Assembly (NCBI GenBank): GCA_016710285.1
Contig: JADJXR010000001.1
Span: 3,373,338 to 3,437,337 of the forward strand
DNA: 64,000 nucleotides
DNA from: Chlorobiota bacterium
GTDB taxonomy: Bacteria; Bacteroidota; Ignavibacteria; OLB7
Direction of reading: 5' to 3'
The notes below the pieces were generated by a model. That model worked only from the letters and a program-made list of their open reading frames with translations. It did not search any database and had not been told where the DNA came from. Positions within the stretch are counted from its first letter, which is position 1, and each line of letters begins with the position of its first letter. A program made the translations under genes and the position numbers. Shown one piece after another: positions 31,490 to 55,253 of this stretch.

Positions 31490-32178
31490 TCGGGAAACAG
31501 CGTGGCGAACTCTTCGGGAATTGGCGCGGAGATGGTGGCCGGCGGGTAGCCATCAATCGTGGGAAGGGTGATTGAGGAAGCATGGAGCATCAGCCGATGG
31601 ATTCCAAGTTGTTGCCGGAACATCGCGGTGTGCCGCCCGTCGCCGTAGATTGTGTCGCCGATAATCGGATGGCGCAGGTGCGCAAGGTGCCGGCGAATCT
31701 GGTGGTTCCGCCCGGTTAATGGAGTAAGTGACAGCAGCGTGTAGCGTGCCGTGGCGTACCGGCCAACGGGAATCGGAAGCTCGATGCGGGCAAGGGGAGT
31801 GAAATGGGTGATGGCCTGGGCCGGCGTGCCATGCTTCTCCTCGGCAATCGGGTGGTCAATCGTCCCTTCTTCGTGCAGATGCCCGCGCGCCACTGCGGTG
31901 TAGGTTTTTAGTACGTTGCGGCTGGCAAAAGCCTCCGCAAGGATTTTTGCCGACTCGCGCCCCCGGGCAAACAGCAGCACACCGCTGGTGGCGCGGTCCA
32001 GCCGGTGAACGGGATAGACCCATTCCCCCAATCGGTCCCGCAGCACCGACATGCACGTCCGTTTGTCGGTGGCCAGTGCCGAGGGGACGGTGAGCAAGCC
32101 ACACGGCTTGTTGACGGCCACATAGGCCCCGTTTTCAGCAAGAATTTCTAGATGATGCTGTTGATGTTCTTCCATCAT
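31471..32178 (-). CDS. truC: tRNA pseudouridine(65) synthase TruC (RluA family)
   Basis: HRLDRATSGVLLFA catalytic motif. The ...TGRNHQIRRHLAHLRHPIIGD... block matches TruC. The 3' end overlaps trmO by 19 nt (convergent). Confidence 0.85.
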   Translation of the reverse strand: MMEEHQQHHLEILAENGAYVAVNKPCGLLTVPSALATDKRTCMSVLRDRLGEWVYPVHRLDRATSGVLLFARGRESAKILAEAFASRNVLKTYTAVARGHLHEEGTIDHPIAEEKHGTPAQAITHFTPLARIELPIPVGRYATARYTLLSLTPLTGRNHQIRRHLAHLRHPIIGDTIYGDGRHTAMFRQQLGIHRLMLHASSITLPTIDGYPPATISAPIPEEFATLFPDYFPQR

Positions 32179-32247
32179 TGCCTCGGAAATATGATCCCTG
32201 TTCCAAACAAACCAACAACCAATAAACGACGGAGAAGAGAACTAACG

Positions 32248-32883
32248 ATGAAACAACCATTTGGCTTGATTGCCGCAGCCTTGATGATGATTGCCACCGC
32301 TGCCGCCCAAACCGTTCCTGCGCCACCGGCAGGCGTTACGCGACCCAGGTACGTTTTCCACGTCACCCAGGCGGGGGTGCAGCTTGGCGACATTGTGATT
32401 GAGCTGTTTCCCGACGTTGCGCCAAAGCATTGCGCAAATTTCGACAGCCTTGTTGCCGCAAAATTCTACGATGGGACAGCGTTCCACCGTGTGATCCCTG
32501 GCTTTATGATTCAGGGGGGAGGGATGAACTCCAAGAACCCGAACGCGCCGCGCAACACGTGGGGGATTAGCGATCCTTCGCAGCGGAAGATCCCGGCCGA
32601 GTTCAACAAAATCTCGCACGTCCGTGGCATCCTTTCCGCCGCCCGCACCGCCGACCCCAACAGCGCGGCATCGCAGTTCTTCATCTGCGTGGCCAATGCC
32701 CCCCACCTTGACGGCCAATATACCGTCTATGGGCAGGTGGTGACAGGGTTGGAGGTGGTTGATAAAATCGTCAACGCCCAAAGGGATAACACCGATAACC
32801 CGCTCCAGCGGATTGATATGAAGGTCGAGAAGCTGGTCCAAAAAACGGTGCGCGGGAAGAACGCCCCGAAAAAAACTAACTGA
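32248..32883 (+). CDS. periplasmic cyclophilin-type peptidyl-prolyl cis-trans isomerase
   Basis: Signal peptide then the cyclophilin core (FHRVIPGFMIQGGG...SAARTADPNSAASQFFIC). Confidence 0.9.
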   Translation: MKQPFGLIAAALMMIATAAAQTVPAPPAGVTRPRYVFHVTQAGVQLGDIVIELFPDVAPKHCANFDSLVAAKFYDGTAFHRVIPGFMIQGGGMNSKNPNAPRNTWGISDPSQRKIPAEFNKISHVRGILSAARTADPNSAASQFFICVANAPHLDGQYTVYGQVVTGLEVVDKIVNAQRDNTDNPLQRIDMKVEKLVQKTVRGKNAPKKTN

Positions 32884-32952
32884 GCAAACCGCCCGGCAGC
32901 CGCTGGCCAGTTCCTTCGGCTTCCACGATGGTGAGCTTGCTCATGCTTTCTC

Positions 32953-32993
32953 AATCTGCCGTGGCACGCACAACGCCACGGCAGATTTTTTTT
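32953..32993 (+). terminator. Rho-independent terminator (ATCTGCCGTGGC-N9-GCCACGGCAGAT plus T9)
   Basis: 12-bp perfect stem followed by TTTTTTTTT, directly downstream of the cyclophilin gene. Confidence 0.85.
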
Positions 32994-33177
32994 TGGGGGG
33001 GGTGAGAACTTTCGCCCCTATCGTTGTCTTTATGATGGTAGGATTGAGCGCCGAACACGGTTTGCGGCCGGGGCGAAGCTGCCAAGATGGTAATGGTGAC
33101 AGTGGGAGAGCAGGGAAAATCATCAATTGCCACCCATTATCGGAAAGCGGCTCCGTTTCTGCCCAACCGAAATCCAA

Positions 33178-33215
33178 CAAGGGGAACCAACGCTGGTTCC
33201 CCTTGTTTCGTTTTG
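33178..33215 (+). terminator. second terminator-like hairpin (CAAGGGGAACCA-ACGC-TGGTTCCCCTTG plus TTTCGTTTTG)
   Basis: 12-bp perfect stem and a T-rich tail about 185 nt after the first terminator, with no ORF in between. Confidence 0.55.
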
Positions 33216-33334
33216 CCCCCCTTGCTTCCGTGCGGATGCTGCGGCGTGGCTCACCAATTCTCCTCACCAATTTTCTCCACCACTTGACAACCGAACATCA
33301 CATTGCCTATCTTTGCTTTTAAGTACGCTTAACA

Positions 33335-34039
33335 ATGAATCTTAACCTGACCACAGAAGATTATCTCCGCTCGCTGTACAAGCTGGAAAGCCGGGATCTG
33401 AAAGCCACGAACGCCGCATTGGCAAAGGAGCTGAACGTCACCTCGGCAGCGGTCACCGATATGCTGCGGAAGCTGGACGAGCTTGGGCTGGTCAGCTACC
33501 AGAAGTACAAAGGGGTGGCGCTGACGAAATCTGGGCTGGCGATTGCCACGCGCATCACCCGCCGGCATCGGTTGTGGGAGGTGTTCCTGATCCAGCACTT
33601 GCACTTTGCCTGGGATGAAGTCCACGACCTTGCCGACCAGCTGGAGCATATCCGCTCCGATGAGCTTACCGAGCGTTTAGATGAGTTCCTGGGCCACCCC
33701 CAGCACGATCCCCACGGCGACCCCATTCCCACCCGCGATGGAGTGGTCCCCGTCCGCATCCTGACCCCGATTGGCCAGCTTCAGCCCGGGGAGGAGGGGA
33801 CGGTGCAGCGGGTAAGCGACGAGTTCCCAGAACTGCTTCGCTACGCGGTGATGGTGGGGCTTTCGCTTGGTTCCCACATCAAGGCGATTGAGCGGATTCA
33901 GTTCGACGGCTCGGTGCGGCTGGTGGCCGATGGGCGCGAATCCGTTATCTCCGCCAAACTGGCCGAAAGCGTTTTTGTGGAGCTGGTTCCAGGAAGCTCG
34001 GTACGCCAAGCCAAGAAGAAATCAGGGGGGAAGAAGTGA
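33335..34039 (+). CDS. DtxR/MntR-family metal-dependent transcriptional repressor with a C-terminal FeoA/SH3-like domain
   Basis: DtxR N-terminal HTH (EDYLRSLYKLES...), metal-binding region (RRHRLWEVFLIQHL...DEVHDLADQLEHI), C-terminal SH3-like domain. Confidence 0.85.
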   Translation: MNLNLTTEDYLRSLYKLESRDLKATNAALAKELNVTSAAVTDMLRKLDELGLVSYQKYKGVALTKSGLAIATRITRRHRLWEVFLIQHLHFAWDEVHDLADQLEHIRSDELTERLDEFLGHPQHDPHGDPIPTRDGVVPVRILTPIGQLQPGEEGTVQRVSDEFPELLRYAVMVGLSLGSHIKAIERIQFDGSVRLVADGRESVISAKLAESVFVELVPGSSVRQAKKKSGGKK

Positions 34040-34506
34040 AAAAACGGGTGCTGTTTTTGGACGATGACCACCGCCGGATCGCGACCTTCCGCGAGCAAGT
34101 GATGCGGAATGAGTTCGAACTCACCGTGGTGGAAACCGCCCACGAGTGTATCGAGGCCTTGGCCAACCGGCAATTCGACCTCGTTCTGCTGGACCACGAT
34201 TTGGGGGGGGAGACCTTTGTTGACAGCAGCCGCGAGGATACGGGAATGGAGGTGGTGCGGTGGATTGGGGCAAAGGGATTGCCCGCCGGAGCCTTCATCG
34301 TCCACACGATGAACCCCGTGGCCGCCACAACCATGTACTTCCAGCTTCAGCAATGGGGGCATCGCGTGGAGCAGGCTCCATTTGGTTCAAGCCGATTTTA
34401 CGGGGCACTTGAGGAGCTGCTTGAAGTCCGCGCCCGCCGCACCAAGCAACGGAAATCGCTGCTGGTTCGGCTAAGGGAGTATTTCCGCTCCATTCGCTTT
34501 AAGTAG
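34036..34506 (+). CDS. stand-alone CheY-like receiver domain protein (orphan response-regulator receiver)
   Basis: LFLDDDHRR and LVLLDHDLGG acidic pockets, with a later T. The GTG start overlaps the dtxR stop (GTGA). No output domain. Confidence 0.55.
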   Translation: MKKRVLFLDDDHRRIATFREQVMRNEFELTVVETAHECIEALANRQFDLVLLDHDLGGETFVDSSREDTGMEVVRWIGAKGLPAGAFIVHTMNPVAATTMYFQLQQWGHRVEQAPFGSSRFYGALEELLEVRARRTKQRKSLLVRLREYFRSIRFK

Positions 34507-34554
34507 GAACGGGCTGGGCTTTGGGTCAGCAGAAATCATAATCCAATATCAACA

Positions 34555-35478
34555 ATGAAACTCAAGATTCTCCTTCTCCTTGCCGTTCTTCTGTTTGCCG
34601 GATGTGGCGGCGGAAGCGATAGCCCGCAGCCAAAAAAACTTCGGATCGTCACCACCACCGGCATGATTGAAGATGCGGTTCGGAACATCGTTGGCGACGA
34701 CTCCGCTGCCGCCACCATCACCGCCTTGATGGGACCCGGCGTGGATCCCCACCTCTACAAGGCTTCCCAGCAAGACCTCTCGCTCCTGACCGAGGCTGAT
34801 ATCATCTTCTATAACGGGCTGCACCTTGAAGGAAAAATGGTGGAAGTGCTGCAGAAACTTGCCCGCACAAAACCAGTGGTGGCCGTGGCCGACGGCGTGG
34901 ACCCCGCAAAACTTCGCACCCCGCCCGAGTTCAACGGCAACCACGACCCCCACATCTGGTTCGACGTGAAGTTGTGGGAGGGAGGGGTCCGGAAGATTGC
35001 CCAGACGCTGCAGGCCCAGGATACGGCCAACGCAGCGCGCTACCGCCAGCACGCCGAACGCTACGTGCGGCAGCTGGACTCGCTGGACCGGTGGGTGCGG
35101 GACCATATCGCCACCATCCCCAACGAAGGCCGGGTGCTGATAACCGCCCACGATGCCTTTGGATACTTCGGCCAAGCCTACGGCATCGAGGTGCGCGGCC
35201 TGCAAGGAATCAGCACCGTGAGTGAGTACGGGCTGGCCGATGTTCAGGCGTTGGTTGAGATGATTGCAAGCCGGAACATCAAGGCCGTGTTCGTGGAATC
35301 AAGCGTTCCGCGCCGTTCAATTGAAGCTGTAGTTGAGGGGGTGAAGGCCAAAGGGAAGAACGTGACGATTGGCGGCCAGCTTTTCTCCGATGCCATGGGG
35401 GCCAAAGGGACCCCAGAAGGGACGTACATCGGCATGGTTTCCGCCAACGTCAACACCATCGTCAACGCGCTGAAATAA
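34555..35478 (+). CDS. metal ABC transporter substrate-binding lipoprotein (cluster 9 / TroA-MntC-ZnuA family)
   Basis: Lipobox LLFAGCGG and the TroA fold pattern (LRIVTTTGMIED, DPHLY, DPHIWFD, AHDAFGYF). Confidence 0.9.
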   Translation: MKLKILLLLAVLLFAGCGGGSDSPQPKKLRIVTTTGMIEDAVRNIVGDDSAAATITALMGPGVDPHLYKASQQDLSLLTEADIIFYNGLHLEGKMVEVLQKLARTKPVVAVADGVDPAKLRTPPEFNGNHDPHIWFDVKLWEGGVRKIAQTLQAQDTANAARYRQHAERYVRQLDSLDRWVRDHIATIPNEGRVLITAHDAFGYFGQAYGIEVRGLQGISTVSEYGLADVQALVEMIASRNIKAVFVESSVPRRSIEAVVEGVKAKGKNVTIGGQLFSDAMGAKGTPEGTYIGMVSANVNTIVNALK

Positions 35479-35491
35479 TGGAGATGGATTA

Positions 35492-36340
35492 ATGGAGATG
35501 GATGGAATGGAGAATGGCATGAAGAACGGAAAAGAACATAGGCCGGAAGGAGTGGAATCGCCAGGAATTTCCCCGCTGGAAGTTCACGACCTCACCGTCA
35601 GCTACAACCGCCGGCCCGTGCTGTGGGACATTGATTTCACCGTGCCGGAGGGGAAGCTGATTGCGGTGGTGGGGCCGAACGGAGCGGGGAAATCAACGCT
35701 GATTAAAGCCGCAATGGGGCTGATCCCATCGGCCAGTGGTTACGTCCGGTTTTTTGGGCAGGGCCTTGCCGAAGCCCGCCAGCGTGTGGCCTACGTCCCG
35801 CAGCGGACCTCGGTGGATTGGGATTTCCCCACCGACGCGCTGGACGTTGTGCTGATGGGCCGCTACGGGCGGTTGCGGTTGTTCCAACGCCCCCGCCGTG
35901 CCGACGTTGAAGCCGCCCACGAAGCGTTGAACAAAGTGGGGATGCAGCAGTTCGCCAACCGGCAGATTTCGCAGCTTTCCGGTGGGCAGCAGCAGCGGGT
36001 GTTCCTTGCCCGCGCGCTTGCCCAGGATGCGGACCTGTACCTGATGGATGAGCCGTTCGCCGGGGTGGATGCCGCCACCGAGGCCGCCATTGTTGAGCTT
36101 CTTCGCCAGATGCGCGCCCTGGGGAAAACCGTCATCGTTGTTCACCACGACCTGCAAACCGTCCAAGATTACTTCGATTGGGCACTGCTGCTGAATATGC
36201 GGCTGATTGCCTTTGGCCCAATGGAGCAAGCCTTCACCAACCAGCTTCTGCAAAAAACCTACGGCGGGCGGCTGAACCTTCTGACAGAAGTTGCGGACCT
36301 GATACGCCACGAACAACGGAAGGAGCGGGACCCGCTATGA
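35492..36340 (+). CDS. metal ABC transporter ATP-binding protein
   Basis: Walker A GPNGAGKST, signature LSGGQQQRV, Walker B LYLMDEPFAGVD. The start is uncertain because several ATGs fall inside a short tandem repeat. Confidence 0.85.
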   Translation: MEMDGMENGMKNGKEHRPEGVESPGISPLEVHDLTVSYNRRPVLWDIDFTVPEGKLIAVVGPNGAGKSTLIKAAMGLIPSASGYVRFFGQGLAEARQRVAYVPQRTSVDWDFPTDALDVVLMGRYGRLRLFQRPRRADVEAAHEALNKVGMQQFANRQISQLSGGQQQRVFLARALAQDADLYLMDEPFAGVDAATEAAIVELLRQMRALGKTVIVVHHDLQTVQDYFDWALLLNMRLIAFGPMEQAFTNQLLQKTYGGRLNLLTEVADLIRHEQRKERDPL

Positions 36341-37632
36341 GCGAATCCGACCTTCTGGATTTCTTCCTGCTTCGCCAACACAACATCCGCGTGGTGGTGT
36401 TGGGGACGATGCTGCTGGGGATTGGCTCAGCGGCCATTGGCTGCTACGCCTTTCTTCGCAAACGCTCGCTGGTGGGCGATGCCGTTGCCCATGCCGCGCT
36501 CCCCGGGGTTGCGGTTGCGTTCATGCTGACCGGGGTGAAAAACCCGGCGGTGATTCTGGTTGGCGCGGCCATTGCCGGGTGGCTTAGCATGGTGGCAATG
36601 GACCTGATTGTCCGCCGCTCCAAAATCCGCGAGGATGCCGCAATCGGGATCGTCCTTAGCGTCTTTTTCGGCCTGGGAATCTTGCTGCTGACGCGGATTC
36701 AAAAAAGCGGATCGGCGGATCAAGCCGGGCTGGATAAATTCCTATTCGGCCAGGCCGCATCGCTGGTGACGGGGGATGTGGTGGTGTTCGGCGCGGTCAG
36801 TTTGGGGCTGGTGGTGGGGATTGTGTTGCTCCACAAGGAGTTCAAATCCATCTCGTTCGATGCTGACTTTGCCCGCTCGATCGGCCTTCCGGTGCGCGGG
36901 CTGGAGCTTGCCATGACCACGATGCTGGTCCTTGCCGTGGTTGTTGGAATCCAAGCCGTTGGGGTGGTGCTGATGGCCGCCATGCTGATTACCCCCGCCG
37001 CCGCCGCACGCTACTGGACCGACCGCCTGACGGTGATGCTGCTTTTGGCCGGAATCTTCGGCGCGGCGGCCGGCTACGGCGGGGCCTTTGTCAGCTACGT
37101 TGCGCCGCGAATGCCCACCGGCCCCTGGATCGTCACCGCTGGAACGCTCATCTTCCTTCTGTCGCTGCTTGCTGCCCCGCGCCGTGGGGTGATTGCCCGG
37201 GTCCTGCGTAACCGCCGCAATAGCCGCAAAACGTTGGAGGAGAATATCCTGAAAACCTTGTATCAGCTTGGCGAGGAGCCTGGGGGGATGTTCCGCCTTC
37301 ACACCGCCGCCGACGTTGCGCGCCGCCGCCGAATCCCGGAATCCCAGGCACTTCGTGGGCTGGGGGTGCTGCGCCGTAGCGGGTTTATCCAGCGGACCGA
37401 AAACGGATGGAAACTGACCCAAGAAGGGGAGAAGCAAGGGCGCAGAGTGACGCGGCTTCATCGCCTGTGGGAGGTGTATCTGACCGAGCACGTCAGCATT
37501 GCCCCGGACCATGTTCACGACGATGCCGAGTCAATCGAGCATGTGCTTACCCCCGAGCTGGAAGCTGAGTTAGAGGCCGTGCTGAACCGCCCCGCCAACG
37601 ACCCCCACCAACGCGCAATTCCATATCAATAA
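36337..37632 (+). CDS. metal ABC transporter permease fused to a C-terminal DtxR-family repressor domain (YtgCR-like)
   Basis: ABC-3 permease TM core, then a C-terminal 140 aa (ENILKTLYQLGEE...RLHRLWEVYLTEHVSIAPDHVHDDAESIEHVL...NDPHQRAIP) that aligns with the HTH and metal-binding regions of DtxR and of the dtxR gene at 33335. The start overlaps the ATPase stop (ATGA). Confidence 0.85.
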   Translation: MSESDLLDFFLLRQHNIRVVVLGTMLLGIGSAAIGCYAFLRKRSLVGDAVAHAALPGVAVAFMLTGVKNPAVILVGAAIAGWLSMVAMDLIVRRSKIREDAAIGIVLSVFFGLGILLLTRIQKSGSADQAGLDKFLFGQAASLVTGDVVVFGAVSLGLVVGIVLLHKEFKSISFDADFARSIGLPVRGLELAMTTMLVLAVVVGIQAVGVVLMAAMLITPAAAARYWTDRLTVMLLLAGIFGAAAGYGGAFVSYVAPRMPTGPWIVTAGTLIFLLSLLAAPRRGVIARVLRNRRNSRKTLEENILKTLYQLGEEPGGMFRLHTAADVARRRRIPESQALRGLGVLRRSGFIQRTENGWKLTQEGEKQGRRVTRLHRLWEVYLTEHVSIAPDHVHDDAESIEHVLTPELEAELEAVLNRPANDPHQRAIPYQ

Positions 37633-37642
37633 CCAAATACCG

Positions 37643-38455
37643 ATGGCCCAGAAACCACTCTCCATTCTCGGCTTGCTGATGGTGGCATCGGCAACCACTT
37701 TTTCCCAAGAGATGGCAACCGACCGCCCCGACCAGACGGAATCGTCGTGGGTGATACCGAAGGGATTTCTTCAGATTGAAACGGGCCTAAGCATTGGCCG
37801 CCACACGCCCCCCCAGATTTCCGGCCAAGCTGCCCTGACGCTGCAGAACCTGAATCTTGCTTCCACGCTTGTTCGCGTTGGCGTGCTGGAGCGGCTGGAG
37901 CTTCGGTTGGAAGGGGGGTATCGGGTGGAGCGGTCGGAAGCAACGCAAAGCGTGGGGCCGATTGAAGAATCAGTTGTGGAATCGCTGGAAGGAATGGACG
38001 CAGTTGCCGTTGGGGTGAAAGTCGGAATCGCCGAGGAAGATGGCCCGCTTCCAGAAACATCGCTGATCCTTCACACCACGCTCCCCGTTGGCGATTCTCC
38101 GTTCGGCCCCAGCTACGTTCTCCCCGATTTCCGTTTCACCCTTAGCCACTCGCTGGGGAAGTCACTCAGCTTGGGGTACAACATCGGTGCCGAGTGGGGC
38201 GATGCCGGAAACCCTCCCGACGGCATTTACACGCTGGTGGTTGGGAGCGATCTTGCCGAAACCATTGGCGGGTTTGTTGAGCTGTTCGGGACGCTTTCGC
38301 CTGGGGGACCGCCGCAGCATACGCTGGATGGAGGGCTGACCTGGGCCGCAAGCGATGACGTGCAGCTGGATGCCTCGGCAGGAATCGGCCTGACCGAATC
38401 GGTCGAGGATTTTTTCGCCAGTGCAGGGGTCTCCTTCCGGCTGAGTGCCTGGTAG
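37643..38455 (+). CDS. putative outer-membrane beta-barrel protein (MetA-pathway/transporter-like family)
   Basis: Signal peptide, alternating amphipathic beta-strand pattern, C-terminal ...GVSFRLSAW (aromatic terminal residue). Confidence 0.55.
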   Translation: MAQKPLSILGLLMVASATTFSQEMATDRPDQTESSWVIPKGFLQIETGLSIGRHTPPQISGQAALTLQNLNLASTLVRVGVLERLELRLEGGYRVERSEATQSVGPIEESVVESLEGMDAVAVGVKVGIAEEDGPLPETSLILHTTLPVGDSPFGPSYVLPDFRFTLSHSLGKSLSLGYNIGAEWGDAGNPPDGIYTLVVGSDLAETIGGFVELFGTLSPGGPPQHTLDGGLTWAASDDVQLDASAGIGLTESVEDFFASAGVSFRLSAW

Positions 38456-38610
38456 CCGCCCCGACCTTCGTCGGAATGACCGCCCCGACCTTCGTCGGGG
38501 TAGCCGAAGGTCTTTAGCCTTCGGTGTCTTCTTTCTAGAAATGACTGGGCCCCGACGGAGGTCGGGGCCGCTACCCCGTCTGTTATCAACCCCGTCGGGG
38601 GTCGAAACTG
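38452..38610. repeat. cluster of GC-rich palindromic repeat elements (CCCCGACCTTCGTCGG twice, CCGAAGGTCTTTAGCCTTCGG, CCCCGACGGAGGTCGGGG)
   Basis: Direct and inverted repeats read directly. A related copy lies at 54135-54270 and a shorter one at 44284-44313. Confidence 0.55.
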
Positions 38611-38641
38611 CTTCCCTTCTAACTCTATTTTGGTTTCCATC

Positions 38642-39559
38642 ATGGACCTCAACGCATTCTGGATTATTCTTACTGGCGCGCTGGCGGCGGGGGCTTGCGC
38701 GTTGGTGGGATCGTTTTTGGTGCTGCGGAAAATGGCGATGCTGGGGGATGCGATTAGCCACGCCGTGCTTCCCGGGATTGCCATTGCCTTTTTCCTGACC
38801 GGAAGCCGCGCGCCGTTGCCGATGCTGATTGGCGCGGGGGTGCTGGGGGTTGCCGCCTCGGTGATGATCGAGGCGCTTCACCGCAGCGGAAAATTGCAGC
38901 AGGATGCCTCGATTGGCATCACCTTCACGTGGCTGTTTGCTGTTGGGGTGATCCTGATCTCACTCTTTGCCGGCGCGGTGGACCTGGACCAGGATTGCGT
39001 GCTGTATGGTGAGATTGCCTACGTCCCGCTGGACCTGATCACCACCGGAAGCGGCGCAAGCCTTGGGCCGCGTGCGGTGTGGGTGGTGGGTGGAATCTTC
39101 CTGCTGAACCTTGTGTTTGTGGTGGCGTTCTTCCGGCGGCTGACCATCGTCTCGTTCGACCCCGCGCTGGCCGCCTCGCTTGGGATTTCCACCGCGCTGT
39201 GGCACTACGCGTTGATGGGGATGGTCTCGCTTACCACCGTTGCTTCGTTCGAGTCGGTGGGGGCAATTTTGGTGGTGGCAATGTTGATTGCCCCGGCGGC
39301 CACCGCCTACCTTCTTACCGAGCGATTGAAACGAATGCTTGTTCTTTCGGTGGCTTCGGGGGTTCTTTCGGCGGTTGGTGGATACTATCTTGCAGCACTT
39401 CTTGATGGATCGGTTGCCGGAGCAATGGCAGTGGTTGCCGGGGTGCAGTTTGCGCTGGCGGCGATTGCAAGCCGATGGTGGGCGATAAAGGAGCAGAAAT
39501 CCGCGGCGCGAAGCCATTTGCCCGAAATCGGAGAACAGCTGCCAGCGGCTGGCGGATAA
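38642..39559 (+). CDS. metal ABC transporter permease (second ABC-3 permease)
   Basis: ABC-3 permease TM pattern (GDAISHAVLPGIAIAF...). ATG at 38642 (MDLNAFW) is taken; the ORF track uses a TTG at 38630. Confidence 0.85.
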   Translation: MDLNAFWIILTGALAAGACALVGSFLVLRKMAMLGDAISHAVLPGIAIAFFLTGSRAPLPMLIGAGVLGVAASVMIEALHRSGKLQQDASIGITFTWLFAVGVILISLFAGAVDLDQDCVLYGEIAYVPLDLITTGSGASLGPRAVWVVGGIFLLNLVFVVAFFRRLTIVSFDPALAASLGISTALWHYALMGMVSLTTVASFESVGAILVVAMLIAPAATAYLLTERLKRMLVLSVASGVLSAVGGYYLAALLDGSVAGAMAVVAGVQFALAAIASRWWAIKEQKSAARSHLPEIGEQLPAAGG

Positions 39560-39684
39560 GGATTGGCGGGGAATGTTGGATGTGAAAGCAAGTGTGGTGG
39601 GACCCGTCTGCATCGTTACCCATTTGCCAAGCAAGCCATCATCAAGACGGTTCCTTGCACAATCAATATCAACGCGCTACTCCC

Positions 39685-40254
39685 ATGAAAAAAGCCTTGA
39701 AGTGGATCGGCATTGGCCTGCTTGCTGCCTTCGTCATCATTCAATTCTTCCGTCCCGAACGCGAAAACCCGGCCAGCATTGCCGGCCAAAGCATCTGGGC
39801 CGATCCCACAATGACCCCAAAAGTGGAGCAGATACTGCGCCGCTCCTGCAACGATTGCCACTCCAACGAAACCGTCTGGCCCTGGTACAGCAACATCGCC
39901 CCTGTCTCCTGGCTTGTGGCGCATGATGTGGAAGAAGGGCGGAAGCATCTCAACTTCTCCACGTGGCTTACCCGCCCCGCCGAAAAACGGGAGCATAAGT
40001 TGGAGGAGATTGCCGAAGAAGTTCAGAAACGGGAGATGCCGCTGCCGATCTATCTTATCACCCACGGCGACGCAGCACTGAGCAACGAAGACGTAGCGGC
40101 CCTGAAAGAATGGAGCGATTATGCCCGCCGCCAACTAACCGCTCCACCCGCGCCAAGCCCAACAACAGCCGACTCGGGGGCAATCCCAGAAAAAAGTGCC
40201 GAGCTGAAGAAAATGGAAGAGAAGCGGGAGTTTATCCCCGAGCATCACCGCTAA
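39685..40254 (+). CDS. heme-binding domain-containing membrane-anchored protein
   Basis: N-terminal TM helix and a CNDCHS...W motif with a conserved Trp-rich segment (PF14376-like). Confidence 0.6.
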
Positions 40255-40303
40255 AGCGGGTGGATGTTTCCTTGATGTTACGCGGTTGTTCTCCAAATAT
40301 TCA

Positions 40304-41011
40304 ATGCCTACACAAACCCTTGTTATCGCGATTGACGGGCCAGCCGCCAGTGGGAAAAGCACCACTGCGCGGCTGGTTGCCGAACGGCTTGGCTACACCT
40401 ACATTGACACCGGCGCAATGTACCGCGCCGTGACGTTGGCGGCGCTCCGCCGGGGCCTGGACCCATCCGATGAAGCCGCCGTTAGTGCCCTTGCCAACGC
40501 ACTCCAGATTGCCTTTGTGCGCAACCCCGGCACCGGAAACCTGCAGACGCTGCTTGATGGCGAAGATGTCTCGCAGGAAATTCGCACCCCCCAGGTGACG
40601 CGGAACGTCTCGCTGGTAAGCAGCTATGCCGGCGTGCGTGGGCCGGTTGTGGCGTTGCAGCAACGGATGGGGGAGCAAGGTGGGGTGGTGATGGATGGCC
40701 GCGACATCGGGACCGTGGTCTTCCCAAACGCCGATCTGAAAATTTTTATGGTGGCCAATTTGGACGCACGCGCCGCGCGCCGCCATGTTGAACTGCAACA
40801 CCAGGGGACCGCGATTGGGCTGGATAATCTTGCCAACGAACTTGCCGAACGGGACCGCCAAGACAGCACCCGCCACCACAGCCCACTCCGCAAAGCCGAT
40901 GACGCGGTGGAGATTGATACTTCGGGGCTGACGATTGAGGAGCAGGTGGAGAAAGTGCTGGCGTTGGTTGCAAGCCGGCAAGCCCAGCACCAGCAGAACG
41001 AACATCAGTAA
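40304..41011 (+). CDS. cmk: cytidylate kinase
   Basis: [14 protein letters not shown]-loop. [10 protein letters not shown] matches Cmk. The ORF track start is a TTG at 40286. Confidence 0.9.
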
Positions 41012-41037
41012 AACCACCGCCACCTTCTTGTGAAGCC

Positions 41038-41397
41038 ATGACCTTCGACACCTTCCGCAGCTACTGCTTGGCCAAGCCGCACACGGACGAAAGTATGCCG
41101 TTCGATAACCAAACGCTGGTGTTCAAGGTTGCCGGGAAGATGTTCGCCCTTGCCAGCACCGATAGCTTGCCGTTGAGCGTGAACCTAAAATGCAAGCCAG
41201 AGCTGGCGTTGGACCTGCGCGAGCGGTACGAATCTGTCCGCCCGGGTTATCACATGAACAAAAAGCATTGGAACACAGTGGTGATGAATGGCGAAATTCC
41301 CACCCGTGAAATCCGCCAAATGATTGACCACTCCTACGATTTAGTGGTTTCCGGATTGCCGCAAAAGGTCCGCAAGGAGCTTTTCCCCCCGCAGTAA
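41038..41397 (+). CDS. MmcQ/YjbR-family DNA-binding protein
   Basis: Length and pattern (SYCLAKPHTDESMPFDNQTLVFKVAGKMFALA...KHWNTV) typical of the YjbR family. Confidence 0.65.
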   Translation: MTFDTFRSYCLAKPHTDESMPFDNQTLVFKVAGKMFALASTDSLPLSVNLKCKPELALDLRERYESVRPGYHMNKKHWNTVVMNGEIPTREIRQMIDHSYDLVVSGLPQKVRKELFPPQ

Positions 41398-41529
41398 CCG
41401 GTCCTGCCCGCTTCCGCCCGATGGGCAGTTCGCACTTGGTTCGGAAAAATCTGTTGGATTCTTTCCGCGCCGTTGTATCTTCGGCCCCGGTGCTTCAACT
41501 GTCCCATTCTTCCGAATCCCTGCCAACCT

Positions 41530-52640: not shown

Positions 52641-52723
52641 GGTAATCGTTGTTTCCCCGTTATCTTGCGCCCCGTTACTCCCTTCATTACTGTCCATGCC
52701 CATCGCTTACTCAGCGCAGCCTG

Positions 52724-54103
52724 ATGATTGAAAAACTCCTTCGACCGGAACTGCAAGATTTAATCGCCGTTGGGGATTTCGAGACCTTCCGCGACATCAT
52801 CGAAGATTGGGAGCCGGCGGACTTTGCCGCCCTTGTTGATGATCTTTCCGAAGGGGAGCAGCTGGCCGTTTTCCGCAACATTGATAACGAGGTGGCGGCG
52901 GCAATGTTTGCCCACCTTGATCTGCCGCAGCAGTACCAGCTGGTTACCGAACTCCCCTACGATAACGTCCGCAACATCCTGAACGCGATGTCGCCGGACG
53001 ACCGCACCGCCTTGCTGGAAGGGCTTCCCGACGAGACTGCCGAGAAGCTGATGCGGATGCTGACCCGCGAGGAACGCACCGTTGCCGAAACGCTCCTTTC
53101 CTACCCCGAGAACAGCGTTGGCCGCCTGATGACCCCGGACTTCCTTGCCATGAAGCCGGACTGGGCCGTTCGGCAAGTGCTGGATTACATCCGCCGCCAA
53201 GCAAAGGATATCGAGACGCTGGATTGGATCTACGTGGTTGACGACGACAACCGCTTGATTGATGACATCCGCATCCACGAATTCCTGGTCGCGCCGCTCT
53301 ATGCCACCGTCCGCTCCATCATGGATAACCAGTACGTCCAGCTGTCGGTGATGGATGACCAAGAATCGGCCATCGAGAGCTTCCGCAAGTACGACCGCAC
53401 CGTGCTTCCCGTTGTGGACCAGCAAGGGGTGATGGTCGGCATCGTCACCGTTGACGACGTGCTGGACGTGGTGGAGGAAGAAGCCACCGAGGACATCCAA
53501 AAGTTCGGCGGACAGGAAGCGTTGGACGAGCCGTACATTGACACCCCCATGCTCCGGCTTGTGCAAAAGCGGGCAACATGGCTGGTGGTCCTGTTCGTGG
53601 GGGAGATGATGACCGCCACGGCCATGCAATATTTTGAGGATGAGCTGGCCCGCGCAATCGTCCTTGCCTCGTTCGTTCCGCTGATTATCTCTAGCGGCGG
53701 AAACTCCGGCTCGCAGGCCGCAACCTTGATTATCCGTGCGCTGGCGTTGGGCGAGGTCCGGCTGCGCGATTGGTGGATGGTGATGCGGCGCGAGCTGTTC
53801 AGCGGCGCGATGCTGGGGCTGATTCTTGGCATCATCGGTTTTTGCCGGATTGCTGTCTGGCACACGGTGTTCGATTTTTACCCGGAGCATTGGTTCCTGC
53901 TTGGGCTGACGGTTGCCCTGTCGCTGATCTGCATCGTGCTGTTTGGGACGCTGACCGGCTCCATGCTTCCGTTCATCCTGAAACGCCTAGGGCTTGACCC
54001 CGCCACCTCGTCGGCTCCGTTCGTGGCGACGTTGGTGGACGTCACCGGGCTGGTGGTCTACTTCTCCATCGCCCTGATGATCTTGCACGGAACAATGCTC
54101 TGA
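52724..54103 (+). CDS. mgtE: magnesium transporter MgtE
   Basis: N-terminal domain, tandem CBS domains and C-terminal TM domain with PLIISSGGNSGSQAA. Confidence 0.9.
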   Translation: MIEKLLRPELQDLIAVGDFETFRDIIEDWEPADFAALVDDLSEGEQLAVFRNIDNEVAAAMFAHLDLPQQYQLVTELPYDNVRNILNAMSPDDRTALLEGLPDETAEKLMRMLTREERTVAETLLSYPENSVGRLMTPDFLAMKPDWAVRQVLDYIRRQAKDIETLDWIYVVDDDNRLIDDIRIHEFLVAPLYATVRSIMDNQYVQLSVMDDQESAIESFRKYDRTVLPVVDQQGVMVGIVTVDDVLDVVEEEATEDIQKFGGQEALDEPYIDTPMLRLVQKRATWLVVLFVGEMMTATAMQYFEDELARAIVLASFVPLIISSGGNSGSQAATLIIRALALGEVRLRDWWMVMRRELFSGAMLGLILGIIGFCRIAVWHTVFDFYPEHWFLLGLTVALSLICIVLFGTLTGSMLPFILKRLGLDPATSSAPFVATLVDVTGLVVYFSIALMILHGTML

Positions 54104-54134: not shown

Positions 54135-54270
54135 GATAAAAGGTCGTTATCCTTTGGCCGACCGAACGGTAGCCGTCCCGACCTTCGTCGGGATTTATAA
54201 AAGGTCTTTAGCCTTCGGCGCCTCACTCCTCAAAAAAGACTTGGCTCCGACAAAATCGGGGCGGCTGCCC
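54135..54270. repeat. second copy of the GC-rich palindromic repeat element (…GGTAGCCGTCCCGACCTTCGTCGGGA…AAGGTCTTTAGCCTTCGG…CTCCGACAAAATCGGGGCGGCTGCCC)
   Basis: Same order of sub-motifs as 38452-38610, plus a duplicated ATAAAAGGTC(G/T)TTA. Immediately upstream of the COG0523 GTPase gene. Confidence 0.55.
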
Positions 54271-54293: not shown

Positions 54294-55253
54294 ATGCTTC
54301 CGATTACCATCATCACCGGATTTCTTGGATCCGGCAAAACAACACTGCTGAACAACCTGCTTCGCACCGATCACGGGGTTCGGTTTGGCGTGATCCAGAA
54401 TGAGTTCAGCGATGTTGGGATTGATGCGGAACTGATGGTGCAGGTGGATGCCGACATCTACGAGCTGAACAACGGTTGCCTTTGCTGCACCTTGCAGGAT
54501 GACCTTCTGCGGGTGATAGATGACCTGTTGGAACGCCGCCACCGCCTAGACCACCTGCTGATTGAAACCACCGGCGTTGCCCTGCCCACATCCACCATTA
54601 TCTCACTCTTCAACCATCCAGAGTATGGGGAAACTTTCCGGCTGGATGGAGTGGTTGCCCTGGCCGATGCGCGCCACCTTCTGGGGCAGATTTCCACAAC
54701 CCAGGAAGCCGCCCAGCAGTTGGCCTATGCGGACCTGATCCTTCTCAATAAAATTGATCTTGTCACCCAGCCGGAGCTTGCGGCGGTTCGGGGGGCAATC
54801 CGTGCCATCAACCCGTTGGCGCAGATTCGGGAAACGGAGTGGGCCGCTGTGGAGAGCGATGCAGTGATTGCCGTGGGCGGGTTCGGGGCCGCAGAGTTGA
54901 TCCAGCAGGAGGGGGACCACGACCACAGCCATGACCAGGGCCACACGCATCAATCGCCGATTGGCGCGGTGGGGCTGGCGATTCCCGGGCAGATGAACCT
55001 TGTGGCGTTCGAGGCGTGGCTGGACCTGACGCTTGCCTTGAACCATGAAAACATCTTCCGAATGAAGGGGGTGCTGAATCTTCCCGGGGCGTTGCGGCGG
55101 TACGTTCTGCAAGGGGTGCACCGTTTATGGAGCGGTGAGTATGGGAACCAGTGGGGGGAATCCGAGCGCATCAACCGCCTGGTGTTCATCGGGAAAAATC
55201 TTGACGGCGAGCAATTGAAAGAAGGGGTGGAGGGGTGTTTGGTGGCGGAGTGA
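54294..55253 (+). CDS. CobW/COG0523-family GTPase (putative zinc metallochaperone)
   Basis: GxxGxGK(T) P-loop (ITGFLGSGKTTLL), CxCC motif (GCLCCT), His-rich stretch (EGDHDHSHDQGHTH). Confidence 0.85.
   Translation: MLPITIITGFLGSGKTTLLNNLLRTDHGVRFGVIQNEFSDVGIDAELMVQVDADIYELNNGCLCCTLQDDLLRVIDDLLERRHRLDHLLIETTGVALPTSTIISLFNHPEYGETFRLDGVVALADARHLLGQISTTQEAAQQLAYADLILLNKIDLVTQPELAAVRGAIRAINPLAQIRETEWAAVESDAVIAVGGFGAAELIQQEGDHDHSHDQGHTHQSPIGAVGLAIPGQMNLVAFEAWLDLTLALNHENIFRMKGVLNLPGALRRYVLQGVHRLWSGEYGNQWGESERINRLVFIGKNLDGEQLKEGVEGCLVAE

Follow-up and report, generated by a model that had tools for sequence, protein, structure and literature searches.

A Tro/Ytg-type metal-import operon headed by a dtxR–cREC gene pair in a Chlorobiota bacterium

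The 64,000-nucleotide stretch analysed here, referred to as the window, comes from a Chlorobiota bacterium (contig JADJXR010000001.1, positions 3,373,338 to 3,437,337 of the forward strand) and contains an eight-gene metal-uptake locus, led by the gene of a stand-alone DtxR/MntR-family repressor and by a second gene that encodes a receiver-fold protein of the cREC type (Table 1). The locus is a Tro/Ytg-type divalent-metal import operon of known type, and an ordinary metal-uptake operon, apart from this leading pair. Sequence comparison identifies dtxR–cREC as a conserved Kapabacteria-like gene pair that stands ahead of an ATP-binding cassette (ABC) importer or an Nramp, and as the new element of the locus. 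The window was compared with related genomic loci, which carry designations such as L001 or L085. Metagenome-assembled genomes, labelled Candidatus Kapaibacterium, Chlorobiota or Bacteroidota, are the source of both the nearest receiver homologs and the syntenic loci. Families were assigned with Pfam and NCBIfam, and structural neighbours were sought by comparing an AlphaFold2 model with the PDB using Foldseek.

Genes and features of the locus

A preliminary description of this DNA listed eight genes, and all of them were recovered where it had placed them, on the plus strand, with strong family matches. Its account of two DtxR-type domains and a stand-alone receiver-fold protein at a metal-uptake locus is borne out by Pfam and NCBIfam, and the sequence has the overlap that it reported between the GTG start of cREC and the TGA stop of dtxR (GTGA), with a purine-rich stretch just 5' of the GTG. 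From dtxR through the outer-membrane barrel gene the intergenic spacings are –4, 48, 13, –4 and 10 nucleotides (nt), the ATG of the fusion permease overlapping the ATPase stop codon. The remaining spacers measure 186 nt (barrel to second permease) and 125 nt (second permease to the Haem_bd ATG); the Haem_bd gene most likely begins at the ATG at 39685 rather than at the start of its open reading frame (ORF) at 39592.

Table 1. Features of the metal-import locus and of the related repeat copy in the window.
Feature	Positions	Strand	Basis
Sigma-70-like promoter, TTGACA-18 nt-TATCTT	33284..33313	+	Consensus scan, 10/12 matches
Candidate DtxR-family operator, palindrome TTAAGTACGCTTAA	33319..33332		TTARG-N4-CYTAA match, between –10 and dtxR ATG
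Stand-alone dtxR (DtxR/MntR-family)	33335..34039	+	Fe_dep_repress 2.3e-16, Fe_dep_repr_C 1.1e-30, FeoA 4.5e-12
cREC-type receiver-fold protein, 156 aa	34036..34506	+	PF20274 cREC_REC, 68.3 bits
TroA-like cluster A-I (ZnuA-family) substrate-binding lipoprotein	34555..35478	+	PF01297 4.1e-78, LFAGC lipobox
ABC transporter ATPase	35492..36340	+	ABC_tran 8.2e-31; best NCBIfam matches are Mn/Fe and MntA ATPases
ABC-3 permease::DtxR-like module (YtgC-YtgR-like)	36337..37632	+	ABC-3 1.9e-65, Fe_dep_repr_C 2.1e-22
Outer-membrane beta-barrel, PF13557	37643..38455	+	Pfam 3.3e-21, signal peptide, C-terminal ...FRLSAW
Composite hairpin repeat block (REP-like)	38451..38600		Direct and inverted repeats, RNA folding
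Second ABC-3 permease (TroD/YtgD-like partner)	38642..39559	+	ABC-3 6.2e-53
Membrane-anchored Haem_bd (PF14376) protein, CNDCH motif (CxxCH type)	39685..40254	+	Pfam 1.1e-45
Second copy of hairpin repeat unit, outside the locus	54165..54225		Repeat search of the window

Of 15 Kapabacteria-like genome loci, 12 have dtxR directly 5' of cREC, and so do L082-L088. In most dtxR–cREC loci the dtxR stop and the cREC start overlap or are at most 5 nt apart, and the pair is intact where the transporter block has moved (L085-L087) or is replaced by Nramp (L007, L009). An Nramp::Usp gene, the second part being a universal stress protein domain, follows dtxR–cREC in place of the ABC importer at L007:9590-11509 and L009:5109-7019; the scan for Nramp domains covered L007.

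The transporter genes themselves supply what is expected of a cluster A-I importer, namely a ZnuA/TroA-family binding protein, one ATPase and two ABC-3 permease genes. The closest solved relative of the binding protein is Treponema pallidum TroA (1toa, 1.7e-83), with which its DPH, DPH, AHD and SD motifs align, and the motif residues are presumably the His/His/His/Asp metal ligands of TroA. The first permease carries its ABC-3 domain at residues 16-278 and Fe_dep_repr_C at 361-429, and residues 301-430 align to MntR positions 10-142 (NCBIfam). The fused module comprises a winged helix-turn-helix (wHTH) and a dimerisation/metal domain without an SH3 domain; its closest PDB relative is 8pvt (1.7e-15), and the permease::DtxR-like fusion is kept in 10 related loci. 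The fusion is a known architecture, that of Chlamydia YtgCR: Chlamydia YtgC carries a DtxR-like repressor, YtgR, which is cleaved off, and permease–DtxR fusions have been reported in 11 phyla (PMC5599777).

The arrangement of the permease genes had been considered atypical in the preliminary description, because an outer-membrane gene and a repeat element separate the second permease from its partners. The two genes instead encode the usual heterodimer (TroC/TroD or YtgC/YtgD) and have an accessory gene inserted between them, a layout found in at least eight related loci, where the gaps measure 2-40 nt if no repeats intervene. The two permease halves are ~35% identical. That the second permease is a stray duplicate was considered and rejected, since the protein is full length and occupies the same position across lineages.

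Two characterised systems are close to this locus. Like T. pallidum TroABCD-TroR, it combines a binding protein and an ATPase with two ABC-3 permeases and a short SH3-less DtxR-type regulator; here, by contrast, that regulator forms part of the first permease, dtxR (an additional, three-domain regulator) and cREC lead the operon, and the permease genes flank a barrel gene. With Chlamydia trachomatis YtgABCD it shares the order binding protein, ATPase, permease::DtxR-like domain and second permease, and with YtgC-YtgR the C-terminal wHTH and dimerisation/metal domain. The Chlamydia system differs in having no separate DtxR, cREC or barrel, and the fusion here is known from sequence, with a recognition helix that is poorly conserved among orthologs.

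The barrel gene follows the fusion permease by 2-10 nt and occupies the same slot between the permeases in the window and in L001, L002, L003, L006, L014, L082, L083 and L085. The slot holds a TonB-dependent receptor and a DinB_2 gene elsewhere (L012:12993-15805), or a cupredoxin lipoprotein (L148:8320-8886), and is empty in L010, L135 and L155; with such varied contents it is therefore a recurrent home for periplasmic and outer-membrane accessory genes. A DinB_2 gene, named by similarity to the L012 gene, also comes after the barrel at L006:13890-14400. A PDB sequence search with the barrel returned nothing meaningful, and the PF13557 literature deals with aromatic-catabolism clusters only and gives no direct support for a role in metal transport. 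MnoP of Bradyrhizobium japonicum, reportedly co-regulated with an inner-membrane importer, offers an analogy that makes a metal-channel function of the barrel plausible; the likeness between MnoP and the PF13557 barrel is one of function only. MnoP is described as an outer-membrane channel and high-affinity Mn2+ importer (cited in PMC6011978). The Haem_bd gene stands at the cluster end in L001, L002, L010 and L082 and directly after cREC in L085.

Repressor, candidate operator and proposed transcription unit

The stand-alone DtxR has the Pfam domains of a three-domain regulator of this family, a wHTH, a dimerisation/metal domain and a FeoA/SH3-like domain. Its best solved relatives are Mycobacterium tuberculosis MntR (5zr4, 2.7e-47), SloR and ScaR, aligned over 197-211 residues, and it has Asp where DtxR has Met10 and Cys102, which we take to be a mark of Mn-type members. 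The closeness of the repressor to MntR, SloR and ScaR, together with the Nramp::Usp genes of L007 and L009, points to Mn/Fe. Mn2+ is most likely the transported metal, Fe2+ or Zn2+ being possible.

The palindrome TTAAGTACGCTTAA (TTAAG-N4-CTTAA) stands three bases before the dtxR ATG at 33335. We scanned the pattern TTARG-N4-CYTAA over 87 comparison loci and the 64 kb window. The operon-head palindrome is its sole site in the window; 12 of the 87 loci contain exactly one match each, always at the operon head, and the other 75 contain none. The –35/–10 architecture is kept 5' of the operon head in 13 related loci, and the module of promoter and palindrome precedes dtxR in related loci as well. 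The gene order in L085/L086 is binding protein, ATPase, fusion permease, barrel, permease 2, dtxR, cREC and Haem_bd, and there the module, with a palindrome that is perfect over 16 bp, is found ~29 nt 5' of the gene for the binding protein; the operator moves with the first gene and therefore tracks the operon head, not dtxR itself. The pattern scan of the loci found no further operator copy before any internal gene. A palindromic operator that overlaps its own promoter region, as in the DtxR/MntR family, is thus present at the level of sequence, and binding to it is predicted. The dtxR ATG is situated inside the palindrome, ~11 nt past the –10, in L011, L012 and L015 (e.g. L012:8301-8314), which implies a leaderless or near-leaderless mRNA.

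Which of the two DtxR-type proteins would act on this operator can be judged from their recognition helices. That of the stand-alone protein is kept across orthologs (0.66 vs 0.76), with A39, V40, T41, M43, R45 and L47 invariant. Among 11 orthologs of the fusion permease gathered by blastp, conservation of the fused domain is 0.81 in the dimerisation/metal part and 0.50 in the wHTH, and its recognition-helix region is essentially free to vary. Because the stand-alone helix is kept while the fused one varies, and because the operator is present in L007/L009 without a fusion in the locus, we infer that the operator belongs to the stand-alone repressor. The alternative is that the operon is repressed mainly by the fused domain, released by proteolysis like Chlamydia YtgR, and that the stand-alone DtxR controls other genes; the domain architecture and the operon order, which equal those of ytgABCD (PMC5599777), would fit this, as would a wHTH that is kept and a metal/dimerisation domain that is strongly conserved. 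However, L007 and L009 have the same operator and a stand-alone DtxR but no fusion permease in the locus, and the fused recognition-helix region varies widely while the operator is constant and the stand-alone helix conserved, so that we see release of a main repressor from the permease as a possibility of rather low probability. The fused domain may serve as an in-cis metal sensor that throttles transport, instead of a released repressor.

The tight spacings and the lone operator at the head, without internal copies, argue for one metal-regulated transcription unit read from the head promoter, so that the operon suggested by the preliminary description is plausible. Division into two units, in which the hairpin block ends transcription after the barrel and the second permease and Haem_bd have a promoter of their own, could draw on the terminator-like hairpin with a T-rich tail at 38503-38525, on the very stable RNA structure of the block and on the spacers of 186 nt and 125 nt. 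It is doubtful all the same: there is no promoter-like site and no second operator in 38530-38640, the gap from barrel to permease is only ~40 nt in relatives without repeats (L085), and the heterodimeric transporter requires its second permease, as is known of the family.

In the hairpin block at 38451-38600 a ~24-nt unit occurs twice in direct and once in inverted orientation, and other hairpins accompany it. The repeat motif is enriched over shuffles, and as RNA the block folds at –94.4 kcal/mol (z = –7.9), which 0 of 200 shuffles equalled. It is absent from the corresponding spacers of L001/L002 (~90% protein identity), which carry unrelated tandem repeats. A second copy, GGTAGCCGYCCCGACCTTCGTCGGG ... 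AAGGTCTTTAGCCTTCGG, is located at 54165-54225, flanked on one side by an mgtE-like gene (52649-54103) and on the other by a cobW/COG0523-like GTPase gene (54294-55253), which suggests a dispersed family of the repetitive extragenic palindromic (REP) kind in this genome. As judged from these comparisons, the block is a lineage-specific dispersed REP-like element. A conserved regulatory RNA was rejected as an explanation of the block, given that the closest relatives have unrelated repeats at this place and the unit recurs elsewhere in the window. REP elements occur inside operons, for instance between malE and malF in Escherichia coli, and the two cases have in common stable, dispersed intergenic hairpin repeats within a transporter operon; the sequences are unrelated, and only two copies are seen here in 64 kb. 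In L001:13615-13830 and L002:13545-13950 the spacer is filled with heptamers GAAGGRT and 14-mers such as GGGGATCGGAGGTC, as in a hypervariable repeat trap.

The interval from a peptidyl-prolyl isomerase gene to the dtxR promoter, upstream of the locus, holds two strong hairpins (~32951-32998 and ~33176-33207, together spanning 32951-33207) that resemble terminators and have T-runs. A promoter-like site between them (33096-33123) could give a small transcript of ~90 nt, for which there was no Rfam match. The Rfam scan of 32000-41500 (E <= 1) yielded one spurious miRNA match only, with no Mn riboswitch and no other known RNA.

The cREC protein and its link to dtxR

The authors who described cREC predicted a cyclic-phosphate phosphoesterase that shares the receiver Asp active site, and reported it only from RNA-repair and NAD+/ADP-ribose contexts, mostly in phages (PMC7824862, PMC9503650). 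It is reported never to be found with histidine kinases, and the family is experimentally uncharacterised (PMC9503650). The protein of the window resembles the described family in its score above the cut-off, its conserved Asp residues and, as far as a crude motif scan of the window shows, the lack of a kinase partner; it differs in being encoded by a chromosomal gene coupled to a metal repressor, and the RNA-repair or NAD+/ADP-ribose surroundings of the described members are not found here. A recent phage origin was considered and rejected, as a phage search gave one weak match with 29.6% identity.

Outside the Kapabacteria-like genomes, the cREC homologs of Planctomycetes stand among housekeeping genes, with dapB, a Cys-rich protein and an epimerase as neighbours. 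A conserved Cys-rich protein of ~130 aa, for which there was no Pfam match, is encoded directly 5' of cREC in Planctomycetota (L022:8489-8938 and 29 other loci), and an NAD-dependent epimerase/dehydratase gene usually follows.

One possible form of the link is a dedicated Kapabacteria module of two genes, in which DtxR/MntR is joined by a cREC protein that takes part in metal homeostasis without a histidine kinase. The cREC protein could then be a metal-independent phosphoesterase induced so as to spare Mn, a receiver that binds transition metal through its invariant Asp/His pocket, or a protein that acts directly on DtxR or the transporter to modulate it. We offer this module only tentatively and think it unlikely; if true, it would be the first functional context of cREC outside RNA repair and NAD+ conflict systems. 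By another reading, cREC would be unrelated to metal homeostasis, a resident gene next to cmk around which the metal operon was assembled, co-transcription being incidental. cREC is indeed near cmk in every Kapabacteria-like locus, including those without dtxR and transporter (the order in L013 is carboxyltransferase, cREC, cmk, and L004/L005 are similar), its Planctomycete homologs sit among housekeeping genes, and operons of dtxR and transporter without cREC are common. Yet the overlap of dtxR stop and cREC start is held across lineages only 52-62% identical, and the pair stays joined when the transporter block moves (L085) or Nramp substitutes for it (L007, L009), and a merely incidental association is accordingly improbable.

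The structure of the cREC protein was predicted with confidence (mean predicted local distance difference test score 90.4) as the (beta-alpha)5 receiver fold, which agrees with the preliminary description. Almost all of the top 50 PDB matches in Foldseek are receiver domains, with template modelling (TM) scores of 0.6-0.78 and 12-23% identity, and a profile search against the PDB matched only the N-terminal half of ordinary receivers and no solved cREC structure. An alignment of 28 homologs served to read residue conservation. D9, D10, D53, H54, D55, G58, E59, H90 and N93 are invariant, and T91, which aligns with CheY T87, is Thr or Ser in all 28 sequences. In the profile alignment to CheY, D9/D10 correspond to D12/D13, D53 to the acceptor D57 and D55 to the D+2 position. 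The acidic pocket noted in the preliminary description is thus real and the Asp at the acceptor position is conserved. The Lys that ends beta-5 (CheY K109) is absent, its place being taken by A114 before a conserved Pro-Phe, and across the homologs by A, G, T, V, I, R or S. The protein also has a highly conserved 16-residue loop after beta-3 (including H54, D55, G57, G58, E59, S64, R66 and D68) and a basic C-terminal helix. Its PF00072 Response_reg score of 25.4 bits is below the cut-off of 30.2, and its PF20274 score is well above the cut-off of 27 (E value 9.8e-19); all 120 cREC homologs among the matches listed carry PF20274.

Single-domain regulators such as CheY and DivK share with the cREC protein the (beta-alpha)5 fold, the acidic pair, the Asp that ends beta-3 and the Thr after beta-4, and differ from it in the points just given, namely the K109 Lys, the 16-residue invariant loop and the sub-threshold PF00072 score, and in that no kinase gene is nearby here. 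A crude motif scan of ORFs of at least 150 aa in the window found no ORF with an H-box motif. Membership in the cREC family, the absent Lys, the sub-threshold Response_reg match and the fact that no kinase link has been reported for the family make a classical phosphorelay input into a DtxR circuit unlikely, and the phosphorylation input suggested by the preliminary description does not hold up well. A role as orphan two-component receiver, with phosphate from a distant kinase or from acetyl phosphate and a signal passed into the DtxR circuit, fits the receiver fold of the protein, the alignment of D9/D10, D53 and T91 with CheY D12/D13, D57 and T87, the weak Response_reg match and the tight dtxR coupling expected of a partner protein, but is very improbable given a match under the Pfam cut-off, a K109 position without Lys, a long invariant post-beta-3 loop that resembles a specific active or ligand site, a family reportedly never kinase-linked (PMC9503650), a window without a kinase-like ORF and the survival of cREC without dtxR.

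Proposed mechanism and significance

A unifying model based on these observations, which we hold with moderate confidence as a whole, is an autoregulated Tro/Ytg-type divalent-metal import operon that supplies the cREC protein when metal is low. When metal is sufficient, the stand-alone DtxR/MntR repressor would bind TTAAG-N4-CTTAA and, from this position between the –10 and the first start codon, silence the entire unit; metal scarcity would allow expression. Going by the families of the proteins, metal would then pass the outer membrane via the PF13557 barrel and be captured by the TroA-like lipoprotein, and the heterodimer of fusion permease and second permease, powered by the ATPase, would pump it in. 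The fused DtxR-like domain would sense cytosolic metal at the transporter and either be released as a YtgR-like repressor or throttle the pump directly. Being translationally coupled to dtxR, cREC would be made only when metal is low. Its product is most likely a small catalytic or ligand-binding protein of the receiver fold, as the predicted phosphoesterase role of cREC suggests, so its supply would be tied to metal status, probably with no kinase-driven phospho-switch. The hairpin block would at most tune relative expression.

Several observations weigh against this model. The operon structure, the operator and the assignment of the repressor are all inferred from sequence. As to the metal, TroA is not metal-specific, and the best NCBIfam match of the binding protein, below cut-off, is the zinc protein AztC. 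The terminator-like hairpin at 38503-38525 falls within the 186-nt spacer before the second permease and could partly uncouple this gene, so the block may lower its expression. The cREC protein keeps four of five receiver signature residues, so it may still be phosphorylated. cREC is found without dtxR or transporter, and still near cmk, in L004, L005, L013 and L081. A neighbour-joining tree without branch support scatters these lone copies among the dtxR-linked ones, which suggests that dtxR and the transporter were repeatedly lost and cREC retained. Viewed outward from dtxR, cREC is downstream in only 1 of 80 metagenomic relatives. The dtxR ortholog of L089 (58% identical) has no cREC and runs straight into the binding-protein gene, and the distant loci L105, L135, L148, L155 and L159 have a stand-alone dtxR and a fusion-permease operon but no cREC; cREC may therefore be connected to metal homeostasis through regulation only, or by accident. 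We regard cREC as an accessory gene specific to the lineage, expressed under metal control and independent of DtxR in its function.

cREC is a widespread family known by prediction only, and its coupling to dtxR before two kinds of Mn/Fe importer provides a concrete, testable functional setting. The dtxR–cREC pair would place this receiver variant in a metal-regulated context beyond those that its describers reported. In addition, free-living bacteria of several lineages have both a permease–repressor fusion of the Chlamydia type and a separate DtxR, and the coexistence of two DtxR-type sensors raises the question of how they divide the work.

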